Shown: in pieces, positions 8,317 to 11,905 of the stretch
Numbering within the stretch: the first letter of the stretch is position 1
How the letters are laid out: the number at the start of each line of letters is the position of its first letter
Source: Thelocarpon superellum
Lineage: Eukaryota
Direction: 5' to 3'
DNA length: 49,987 bases
NCBI GenBank assembly: GCA_026025795.1
Contig: JAPEUG010000095.1
Location: forward strand, 1-49,987
Made by a program: the position numbers and the translations under genes
The notes under the pieces: generated by a model
The model's input: the letters and a program-made list of their open reading frames with translations, nothing else
Told to the model about the DNA's origin: nothing
Database searches by the model: none

Positions 8317-10733
8317 ATGAGTGGCTTTCCCAGTTACGATTACGCCCAGAACCAGCAGGGTCCCGAGGAGACTGCTGGGGCTGGGCCCGCGCCCAATCAA
8401 CAGCAACAAGCGCCCATGGGCCAACCGACTGACAATTCCCCTGGTCCCTTCCAAGCCGGCGGCAATGGTGACCCTGGCGCGACCGGGGGACCGCAGCAAG
8501 GCGGTGACGCCAAGACGACGCTGTGGTAAGTTCGCATTGTGCCTCCGTCCCCCTGCCACCCTTCCCCCGTCCACCGCTCCACCCCTACCCCGCTCCCCCG
8601 CTCCCCCGCTTCCCCGCACCGTCCTAATACTGTCACAGGATGGGCGAGCTCGAACCTTGGATTGACGAGAACTTTGTGCGGAGTGTCTGGTTTGGCATGG
8701 GTGAACAAGTGAACGTGAAGATGATCCGGGATAAGTTTTCTGGGTACGTGGGTCGGTGGTGGGTGCGCCGCGCGTGGCTCTGACCTCGACCTAGGAACGC
8801 GGGCTACTGCTTCGTCGATTTTGCTAGCCCGGCCGCTGCCGCCAAGGCCCTGACCCTGAACGGCACCCTGATCCCCAACTCGAATCGGCCTTTCAAGCTT
8901 AATTGGGCCTCGGGCGGCGGACTTGCCGATCGGCGGTGGGTGTCCCCCTCATTCCGGGCTGCCCCTCTCCCCGCCACGTGCGAGCCGTGGGACTGACCGA
9001 TCGTGGCAGAGATGACCGAGGGCCGGAGTTCTCCATCTTCGTGGGTGACCTGGGTCCGGAAGTCAACGAATACGTCTTGGTCTCGCTCTTCCAGAGCCGT
9101 TTCCCGTCGTGTAAGTCGGCCAAGATCATGACCGATCCAATCAGTGGCATGTCGCGCGGCTACGGCTTCGTCCGCTTTTCCGACGAGAGCGACCAGCAGC
9201 GCGCCTTGACCGAGATGCAAGGCGTCTACTGCGGCAACCGGCCCATGCGCATCTCCACCGCGACGCCGAAGAACAAGAGCGGTGGCGGCGGCCCGGGCAT
9301 GGCGATGCAGGGCGGCGCCGCGGGCGCCGGTGCCGGTGCCCCCGTGGGCATGTATTCCATGGGCGCCCCGCCAATCGGATACTACGGCGCGCCGCAGCCC
9401 ATGAACCAGTTCACCGATCCCAACAACACGACCGTCTTCGTTGGGGGCCTGTCGGGCTACGTGACCGAGGACGAGCTCCGCTCCTTCTTCCAGGGCTTCG
9501 GCGAGATCACCTACGTCAAGATTCCACCGGGCAAAGGCTGTGGCTTCGTCCAATTTGTCCAGCGCCACGCGGCCGAGATGGCCATCAACCAGATGCAGGG
9601 CTACCCCATTGGCAACTCACGCGTGCGCTTGAGCTGGGGTCGGAGTCAGAATAACTCGGGCCCGGCGGGGACTCCGTACCGCCCGGCCCCTCCGCCGCCG
9701 GTCTACCCTTCCATGGGCATGCCGCCGTCGCATCCCTACGGGAACTTTGCGCCCTTAAAGGTGAGCCTCGACGCGTACCTCACCCCCTACGTTCGGACAT
9801 ACAGGCTGACGTCTCTCAGTAAGAGGATTTCTTCATGAGTTCCGCAGCTGGAGTCTGAGCGTCAAGCGACCACATGGGTGTATTTCAAGTCCGCTTTGCA
9901 CATCATTGGCTTCTGTCTTGCCTCTTGGCTAGTTCTTTCTCCTCTTAGCGTTCCTCCCAAAAGAACATGAGGGGTGGCGATCTGCTTTATCTGTCAGGGG
10001 CATCCTCTCCTTTCCTCCCCGTCCTCCACCTCGTCGTCCACACTCTTTTCCCTTCTCTCCATCCCTCTCCCACCCCCATTCGGGTGTGCGTGATGCGCCA
10101 CGATGTGATCGCGTGCTTCGACCACCGTGGGGACCCCCCCAGGGACTGCCTTCGCGAAGGGTCTCGTCGCTCACTCTCCCATGTAACATACTCTGCTCTG
10201 GTGGCGCGGTGTCATCACGAGAGATCGCTCCCACCTACGGGATGGCGGGATGACGGAATTTCCGAGAACGACGACGATCCATCTTTCCAAATGCTAGACT
10301 ATCGATGAATCTCTTCTCTCTCCCTCTCTCCCCCCGCGCCCCTCTCCTTCTCCTTTCATCTCTCTCCATCCCTCCCCTCAATGGCAGATGACGCCGCTCC
10401 GGCCCCACCTTTCCTCTTGCACCCTGCCTCGCGTTGCCCGCTCACTCGCTCGCGGCACGTGATCCGTAACCATGACCGCCACGAGGAGCCCCAGCTGACC
10501 TTGTGCCGTCGTGCGCCCCTCGCAGTCCCCACGCCGCACACGTGCATCCTCCACCTGGACCCGGGACGATGCCACCCGCCGGCCCACCTGGGGCGCTGGA
10601 CCCCGATGTCCCGGGCCCCACCGACGCCATTGCCGTCCACCAGATGAATGAGATGTACATGGCGCAAAGGCAGGGTGTGGCCGAGCGGCTCGAGACCGAT
10701 GGGCGTGGCTTTCATGGCGTCTTCTCCCAGTGA
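8317..10733 (+). CDS. nam8: Nam8/Ngr1/Csx1-family three-RRM RNA-binding protein; short isoform stops at 9822, predicted long isoform at 10733
   Basis: Exons 8317-8525, 8639-8743, 8795-8935, 9010-9760 give KTTLWMGELEPWIDE, NAGYCFVDF, FKLNWA, SIFVGDLGPEV, SRGYGFVRF, DPNNTTVFVGGL, GKGCGFVQF, RVRLSWGRS. All introns are GT-AG with branch sites. Terminal exon is either 9820-9822 (TAA) or 10526-10733. Confidence 0.92.
9760..10525 (+). other. Predicted [D1,2] stwintron: internal intron 9761-9819 nested in the donor of external intron 9760+9820-10525
   Basis: Internal intron GTGAGC...GCTGAC(9805)...CAG(9819). After excision G9760+TAAGA forms GTAAGA. External branch GCTGAC(10494), acceptor CAG(10525). 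The phase-2 join gives AAT CCC CAC in frame. Confidence 0.7.
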
Positions 10734-11905
10734 TTGAATGGGTGGATGGATGGGATAGTTGTCGCTATCTCAGCCCCCTCCCAGGGATCGATGGATGGGA
10801 TGAAGCGGTCGGGTTGGAAGTGCATGCACGCATCAGTGGTCTTCTCTCCAGCTCCTCATCCTCCTCTCGTCCTGCTGCGTGTTGCGGCTCTTCTCTGCTC
10901 TGCTCATCTTTAGCCTCTCTGCGCTCTTGCTAGGTCTCGCGCTCGCACTCGCACTCACACTCACTGCCGGCGTCGTCACCGTCGTCACCGTCGTCTTCTC
11001 CGCTAGCAAGCGTACATAGCGGTCAAGGCAAGGCAGGGAATCTTAGGAGTTGGTCTTGGAACGCTCGCGTCCGAATCGACTAGTGCACTCAAGTCTGCCC
11101 GAAACGTGGTCCCTGTCCTTCCTCCCGCCTCTCCGTCTGATCCAACTCCGTGTGCTCATGCTGAACGGGATGCACGCGTATGTCGGCGAGAGCTCCTGCG
11201 CTCGGACTTTGACCTTGCTTCAGATCATGGTTGAATACTTCGGACCAACGTTGACACTTGGACGGACGGGTCGTTGGCATTTGCATGTTGAGCGATGGAT
11301 CTCCATGAAGAAAAGGCCTAGAACGGGCGGGAAAACCTCTAGGAGCCTTACTGTTCTCACGTTACGTCTTTCTATGCGGATTCGGTTTCTGACGTCGACG
11401 TGATGTCCTACGCCAACATCCATGTATCGTCCAAGTCGTGTACCACGTCCCATCGTGACGATGAACTTCGGGTCCTGGTCAAGGAAGGAAGGAGGCCAGC
11501 GCGTCTGCCGCTCTCCCCATTCTTGTCCTCCCACTTATCCATATCCGACGCCATCACCACTACCCGTCAACACCGCTATGACCGGTCGCCAAGGAAGAAG
11601 AAGGAACGACCATGGCGGCGCGCGATGTGGAACTTGGAGCCGGATAACCATTGCACCTTGGTTGCTTTCCTTACTTCCTGGCCCCGTCTCCGTGCTTGTT
11701 GCTTCATTCTCGCCGTCTCCATCACCATCTCGCTCATCATCCCACCCATCCCACCCATCCCACCGCATCCCATCCGCTATTGCTTCATGTGTGCGTGAAG
11801 GCTTGTCACAGGGCTTGCCAGGCCTGTCCTAGCTCGGGTTGCATTTCCCCGTTGCAATCAGCCCTCGGCCAGTACCGTCGCCATCAACGCTGCCCGCCGC
11901 CCAAT

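Follow-up and report, generated by a model that had tools for sequence, protein, structure and literature searches.

The window analysed in the present study is a stretch of 49,987 nucleotides from Thelocarpon superellum (contig JAPEUG010000095.1 of GenBank assembly GCA_026025795.1, forward strand). It carries a gene for a protein with three RNA recognition motifs (RRM) resembling the yeast splicing factor Nam8, and the subject here is the nested intron at the 3' end of this gene (Table 1). The fourth exon encodes a sequence 86-93% identical to the proteins of relatives from several fungal classes. Behind it, a small internal intron is flanked by TTA AAG / TAA GAG (a slash marks splice sites throughout), and its removal leaves an open reading frame (ORF) of 402 amino acids that ends with APLK and a stop. 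The same spliced joint also reads AA/GTAAGAG and so contains an assembled donor, G/TAAGAG. Downstream, the exon 10526-10733 is open and requires two upstream bases (AA+T = Asn), and the joining of 9759 to 10526 gives an ORF of 470 amino acids, reading ...APLN/PHAAHVHPPP...GVFSQ before its stop. A direct one-step splice of 9761-10525 leaves G1 of the donor in the exon, shifts the frame by +1 and ends ...APLKSPRR...PPDE, which agrees with the statement of the first-pass annotation that the genomic donor at 9761 is in the wrong frame for the last exon. The sequence features which that annotation had reported were all confirmed at their positions in the window. It was mistaken, however, in holding that the donor hexamer is missing from the genomic DNA: GTAAGA stands at 9819-9824, in the other register.

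According to the main text of PMC9024468, a [D1,2] stwintron has an internal intron that separates nucleotide 1 from nucleotide 2 of a second donor, G1/U2RWGY. In the window sequence, the internal intron is of the U2 type with a donor, a branch point and an acceptor of its own, and it lies between nucleotide 1 and nucleotide 2 of the second donor, GUAAGAG. The external intron also has its own branch point and acceptor, and the conserved frame is reached solely by consecutive excision of the two introns, whereas one-step use of the outer sites shifts it.

Table 1. Features of the Nam8-like gene and of its nested 3' intron in the window
Feature	Position	Strand	Remarks
Exon 1 of the three-RRM gene	8317..8525	+	ATG at 8317; GTAAGT donor after the exon; translation continuous with relatives
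Exon 2	8639..8743	+	CAG/G acceptor, G/GTACGT donor; in frame
Exon 3	8795..8935	+	TAG/G acceptor, G/GTGGGT donor; in frame
Exon 4, long form	9010..9759	+	Ends in phase 2 on AA, the first two bases for Asn; RRM2, linker, RRM3 and proline-rich segment; RRM_1 E=6.5e-34; relatives 91-93% identical
Exon 4, short form	9010..9760	+	Ends GCG CCC TTA AAG
G with two roles	9760	+	Third base of Lys AAG (short form); G1 of the external donor (long form)
Internal intron, 59 nt	9761..9819	+	Donor GTGAGC, branch GCTGAC 9805-9810, acceptor CAG
TAA stop of the 402-aa reading	9820..9822	+	Doubles as U2-A4 of the external donor G/TAAGAG
External intron remainder, 706 nt (707 with G9760)	9820..10525	+	Donor G+TAAGAG, TTTCTTC 9828-9834, GGAGTC 9850-9855, branch GCTGAC 10494-10499, acceptor CAG 10523-10525
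Last exon, long form	10526..10733	+	T completes Asn; 68 codons; TGA 10731-10733

To cover other routes to the last exon, every single GT/GC...AG intron with a donor in 9650-9899 and an acceptor in 10380-10599 was enumerated exhaustively. Twenty-six such combinations are in frame and free of stops, all of them with non-consensus donors or keeping or deleting residues, and the conserved joint APLN/PHAAH is given by none (0/26). The genomic GTAAGA combines TAAGA with the G that ends the small intron, and constitutes a built-in competing donor, out of register and lying one intron-length downstream of the productive register. It is in frame solely with the poor acceptors 10485, 10488 and 10494 and would keep 58 nt of the intron; combined with the acceptor at 10525 it is out of frame. 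Of the two registers, only the one using G9760 is created by splicing.

The evidence for the long form comes from related proteins. The translated last exon found the protein P0001, of 450 amino acids and called on an assembled contig of 1994 nt, at E=8e-25 and with 74% (51/69) identity. Compared with the conceptual long protein, P0001 is identical at 399 of 447 positions (89.3%), and this identity runs across the predicted joint, ...GNFAPL-N-PHAAH..., where the relative reads ...GNFAPLNPHAAHMHPPP...; P0002 shows the same Asn joint in ...FAPMNPHAVHMHPPQ..., and both of these transcript-like proteins carry Asn, not Lys, at the junction codon. Judged from these translated assemblies, close relatives have an mRNA with exactly the predicted Asn joint. 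Since the junction in P0001 is direct, the joining of the tail through an ordinary intermediate exon, which the first-pass annotation had set against its own proposal, is excluded. The closest named full-length match was a protein of a lichen-associated metagenome-assembled genome (88%).

The last 106 residues of P0001 were used as a query and the tails of the 204 related proteins collected were read (three N-junction proteins and P0022 were classed by eye); the Asn junction together with the conserved tail was present in 25, which belong to Pezizomycetes and Orbiliomycetes as well as to Lipomyces, Saitoella and Pneumocystis, with Morchella, Tuber and Orbilia/Arthrobotrys among the named genera. 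For the tail, comparison of the window with L053, one of the related loci described below, gives a nonsynonymous divergence (dN) of 0.345, for which the NG86 method returned no valid synonymous value (dS = -1), read here as saturation of the synonymous sites. The flanking intron, unlike the last exon, has no detectable similarity. Chance is unrealistic as an explanation of the tail, with 51 of 69 residues of the last exon shared with P0001 and, against L053, the stated dN beside synonymous sites read as saturated. By these comparisons the tail is old and constrained, and it is present across Ascomycota.

Metagenome contigs were scanned with an alignment of 14 proteins, and the 80 loci so obtained were sorted by the sequence after the junction codon to compare their genomic layouts. 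A Lys or Gln codon is directly followed by a stop in 34 of the 80 loci (16 of them TAAG) and by GT or GC, with the small intron unspliced, in 18; the Asn junction was seen in 17, and the other 11 are more distant or truncated. The genomic locus L053 repeats the design of the window, with AAG/GTTCGT, an intron of 56 nt containing GCTAAC, then ACAG/TAAGGC and a segment of 568 nt, at the external end of which CGCTAAC...ACAG/T CCC AAT GCT GCA CAC brings in the conserved tail in phase 2. In three Pezizomycete-like genomic loci (L060, L061 and L075, on contigs of 6-147 kb, with L060 and L061 on more than 140 kb), a single ordinary intron stands at exactly this point and in this phase, and their tails are 71-84% identical to a Morchella protein; in L060 this intron is AA/GTAGTT...TAG/T, of 215 nt. 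L055 is intronless at this position. In 13 loci, genomic or unspliced (one counted per near-identical group), a small intron of 51-78 nt occupies the corresponding place, and the bases after it are TAAG in nine, TAAT in one, TGAC in two and TGAG in one. On this distribution, the stwintron is apparently old in Leotiomyceta.

The 80 loci and the window were also searched by tblastn with 14 tail queries, and the ancestral tail was found in 15 loci plus the window at E≤1e-3; the remaining loci gave no convincing plus-strand match to the tail even at E≤50. The idea that the tail is kept in all Leotiomyceta was dropped on this result. The central proposal of the first-pass annotation, a [D1,2] stwintron whose second donor depends on the first splice and whose long form ends with 10526-10733, is supported by comparison, through the P0001 and P0002 junctions and the layout of L053.

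Transcript-like loci bear on whether both RNA species are made. The cDNA-like L034 is 100% identical to the genomic L052; all upstream introns and a small intron of 64 nt have been removed from it, and it is then colinear with L052 for 597 nt past the stop. This is excision of the small intron (step 1) and a persistent step-1 RNA within one organism. Furthermore, L019 (ATG AAG TAAGCA...) and L013/L029 (ATG AA/C CCC TAC CAG...) share 98.4-99.3% identity as far as the AA and diverge from there on, so one species group yields a Lys-stop RNA as well as an Asn-joined RNA. The downstream exon of L013/L029 is Gln-rich, ends NFNNTY before the stop and is not the ancestral tail. The Asn-joined L013, L021, L023, L029, L009, L049, L050 and L064 all have such a non-ancestral exon, giving NFNNTY, NDAQQQQTYEGAQGV, N or NY ahead of the stop. 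We infer from these junctions that the second splice is still widespread and that several lineages have replaced or lost the ancestral last exon. In the lineages that lost the tail, the tail-less protein would be the main or only product, and a product of 402 amino acids would accordingly be a workable one. The existence of both RNA species in relatives is demonstrated by the assembled loci, and for the organism of the window we infer that both forms are made.

Our explanation, which we hold to be very probable, is that the 3' end of this Nam8-like gene is a [D1,2] stwintron removed in two steps to reach the conserved tail, and that the stop met after the first step closes the ORF of 402 amino acids. 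In the first step, the 59-nt intron 9761-9819 would be excised, whereby G9760 would join TAAGAG and build the donor G/UAAGAG. In the second step, the assembled donor would be spliced to the acceptor at 10525 over the 707-nt pyrimidine-rich external intron, bringing AA to T10526, and the resulting mRNA would encode 470 amino acids including the conserved C-terminal tail of 68 residues. The RNA after the first step would itself contain a complete ORF, with AAG and then the TAA within the new donor, for 402 amino acids without the tail. The second intron is unusually long, and its removal may be the slow step that sets the ratio of the short to the long form. As to the origin of the arrangement, an ordinary intron may have come first, with the small one inserted into its donor afterwards.

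Several points weigh against this explanation. The genomic loci of P0001 and P0002 might carry an ordinary rather than a nested intron. Even at E=50, tblastn gave no conserved last exon within 1.2-3 kb in many related genomic loci, namely L015/16, L040, L052, L056, L067, L069 and L078-80; the lineages concerned thus manage with the short product alone, and a recently disused exon is a slight possibility here. In addition, the external intron measures 707 nt against 59-113 nt for the other introns of the gene, and so long an intron could splice poorly or not at all.

The alternative that survives best is that only the long form counts, and that the Lys-stop RNA is a transient "splinter", decayed or quickly spliced, with no protein output and no switch. 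We consider it somewhat unlikely. A phase-2 GUAAG donor automatically brings an in-frame TAA with it, and the short ORF can exist without selection. With about 900 nt behind its stop, the RNA would also have a long 3' region of the kind expected to attract nonsense-mediated decay. The stwintron literature, in the main text of PMC12403724, treats the intermediate as a transient RNA. These arguments are opposed by the Lys/Gln-stop transcripts assembled in 34 of the 80 loci, 31 of them outside the three genomic contigs with a standard intron, by the 67 of 204 proteins that end at Lys or Gln, and by L019 assembled alongside L013/L029, all of these counts coming from species other than those in which the nested intron and the ancestral tail occur together. 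Many lineages, moreover, appear to make the short protein alone, and hence it would be functional in its own right.

It is quite improbable that, conversely, only the short form is made and the gene ends at AAG-TAA as in Dothideomycete-type relatives, with 10526-10733 as a disused relic. Most annotated relatives are indeed about 400 amino acids long and end with Lys or Gln, and in several genomic loci the small intron is followed by TAAG but by no conserved tail downstream. Yet the exon in the window is intact, with 68 codons free of stops, a GCTGAC branch, a CAG acceptor and a good G/TAAGA donor; an expressed relative has a tail 74% identical to it, and the dN of 0.345, with synonymous sites read as saturated from an invalid NG86 dS, stands beside a flanking intron that has no detectable similarity. 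Finally, that the tail is reached through an ordinary intermediate exon, through the genomic GTAAGA at 9819 or by one-step excision of a non-canonical GG-AG intron is extremely improbable, for in spite of the presence of that GTAAGA, of the 26 combinations formally in frame and of a conserved CAG at 9845-9847, none of the 26 yields the APL-N-PHAAH joint of P0001, P0002 and 23 other proteins, GG-AG introns were not met in the main texts of PMC9024468 and PMC12403724, and the nested layout recurs in L053.

In 31 non-redundant loci, positions 6-20 after the T of the stop are 63-81% pyrimidine, whereas most of the 50 positions that follow reach about 45-60%, and the tract of the window is TTTCTTC. 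A GGAGTT-like hexamer (G[GC][AG]GT[TCA]) follows 21-58 nt after the T of the stop in 21 of the 31 loci, in 15 of them as exact GGAGTT and in the window as GGAGTC. The pyrimidine tract and the hexamer together are suggestive of regulation. The loci with the hexamer include L001, L004, L005, L008, L012, L015, L017, L018, L033, L036, L040, L048, L059 and L077; its surroundings are otherwise unalignable, and it often lies inside AGCGGGAGTTGG or CAGGAGTT. Farther into the external intron of the window, long TCC/CTC-rich pyrimidine runs occupy 9990-10080 and 10310-10380, and they form weak inverted pairs with GGGATGGCGGGA at 10239-10250. The stwintron has no terminal inverted repeats and three weak internal pairs of 10-12 nt, and no Rfam family was detected in 9700-11400 at E≤1.

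A more far-reaching proposal is an autoregulatory two-step switch, in which a U1 small nuclear ribonucleoprotein (U1 snRNP) helper of 5' splice sites would bind the pyrimidine tract past G/UAAG and decide on the second step, and thereby between the tail-bearing and the tail-less form; the switch would have been conserved since the early Leotiomyceta, with the tail kept, replaced or lost by class. This we regard as speculative and unlikely. In PMC3082912, TIA-1 is described as binding U-rich stretches next to 5' splice sites. According to a Histoplasma preprint of 2026, a gene called CSX1, possibly the orthologue of the present one, has 3'-trailer isoforms, long and short, which differ from one growth form to the other.

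With regard to the identity of the protein, three RRM_1 stretches were found in P0001, which is the three-RRM arrangement of Nam8. The Nam8 chain 5zwn_V was by far the best match among solved structures (E=3.9e-76, residues 40-347 against 51-388; 6.9e-94 with a profile), and the next one was Pub1 at E=6e-24. Relatives are labelled Csx1 or NGR1 by their sources. The label "Nam8-like" given by the first-pass annotation fits the best solved structure and is a fair one on these matches, Nam8 being a possible one-to-one orthologue. The tail encoded by 10526-10733 matched no Pfam family and no solved chain, the Nam8 C-terminus included, either as a single sequence or as a 14-sequence profile, and it had no usable match in the ESM Atlas. 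Yeast Nam8, which belongs to the U1 snRNP, and mammalian TIA-1 are alike to the present protein in their three RRMs, whereas the tail of the window has no detectable similarity to the C-terminus of Nam8. Qiu et al (2011, PMC3082912) reported that residues 401-454 of Nam8 are essential and that many fungi encode three-RRM homologues of about 400 amino acids without the Nam8 C-terminal domain.

Among the known systems, the [D1,2] stwintron of lipS is the closest in type and in phylogenetic pattern. As described by Flipphi et al (2017, PMC5639578), its intron is nested in Leotiomyceta and a standard intron occupies the same position in Pezizomycetes and Orbiliomycetes, just as L060, L061 and L075 have an ordinary intron and the window and L053 a nested one. 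The gene is a different one, however, and here the last intron is concerned, in phase 2 and with an immediate TAA so that the intermediate has a complete ORF, and with an external intron of 707 nt. After loss of the lipS stwintron no intronic sequence remains, according to the same text, whereas the decayed cases of the present gene keep the internal intron before the stop and have the downstream exon missing or replaced. The "sister" [D1,2] stwintrons of Hypoxylaceae and Xylariaceae, as presented in the main texts of PMC9024468 and PMC12403724, share the two-step excision and the one-step mis-splice that leaves G1 in the exon with a +1 frameshift. They are recent and similar copies with terminal inverted repeats at species-specific positions, whereas the stwintron of the window is single and old, is free of such repeats and has a position common to distant fungi. 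The [D5,6] stwintron of rtnA, described by Kavalecz et al (2019, PMC6616335), is likewise tied to alternative splicing and to the lineage-specific loss of a neighbouring exon; it differs in its type, in lying at the 5' end of its gene and in acting by exon skipping, whereas here the choice would consist in stopping after step 1, with the terminal coding exon at stake. Autoregulatory unproductive splicing and intron retention in genes for RNA-binding proteins, as treated in PMC4379411, are comparable in having a conserved alternative outcome and conserved non-coding sequence at the choice point. In contrast to those systems, autoregulation is hypothetical here, and instead of an obviously dead transcript the alternative outcome yields a protein with all three RRMs.

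Stwintrons, their intermediates and the one-step mis-splice are already known. Within the searches made, which covered the main texts of PMC5639578, PMC9024468 (with one supplement), PMC12403724 and PMC6616335 and wider literature queries, the present gene was not found. New in the present case is an intermediate that is a complete ORF for a protein sufficing in other lineages, together with the last-intron, phase-2 position, so that the new donor supplies the stop codon. New as well are a layout that is widely shared among lineages differing in the fate of the last exon, and a splicing-factor gene that is mis-annotated in the same ways across many genomes. For the study of intron evolution, the gene is one more case among the few known [D1,2] stwintrons, an old and widely shared one, with a clear ordinary-intron state in earlier-branching fungi and several later fates that vary by lineage. 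For the study of mechanism, it offers a natural place to test two-step splicing as a switch, in a gene whose product would itself help to choose 5' splice sites.

The consequences for annotation are direct. Besides the proteins with the Asn junction and the tail, 67 of the 204 end at the Lys or Gln, 93 read into the intron (Lys or Gln followed by Val or Ala, from GT or GC) and 10 are other cases. Moreover, nine lichen-associated gene models reach the tail by way of nine different invented peptides, none of them (0/9) with the Asn joint. The expectation of the first-pass annotation that gene finders would miss the long form is well supported by these figures. The conserved C-terminal module is consequently missing or garbled in current models, with 160 of 204 proteins stopping at or reading past the Lys/Gln codon, and at least part of the Nam8 homologues of about 400 amino acids noted by Qiu et al (2011) may be an annotation effect of this intron.

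Some minor observations concern variants of the small intron and of its retention. Several protein calls read Lys and then Ala, and GC-AG versions of the small intron seem to be common; L059 and L062, which are 95.6% identical, have the donors GCAAGT and GTAAGT, respectively. In one lineage (L007, L069, L070, L078, L079 and L080), the small intron is 72-78 nt long, in frame and Gln-rich (KVGGQQQQ...WSPDASNHQQ and a stop), and it ends at the same TAAG; the cDNA-like L007 and L070 retain it, and it may have become coding in that lineage. In L051, P0108 and P0117, the unspliced small intron is read through into an extension of 13 residues, KVGPVSVDESTPQY or KVGQVSVDESSPQY followed by a stop, which is alike between relatives, and the TGA of this stop falls within the branch site TACTGAC. 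Lys-stop forms also occur in the Pezizomycete- or Orbilia-like P0135, P0145, P0159, P0177, P0182, P0196, P0201, L002 and L003, in which the intron is an ordinary one (AA/GTAG...). Retention of the last intron with a tail-less product may therefore predate the nested arrangement.

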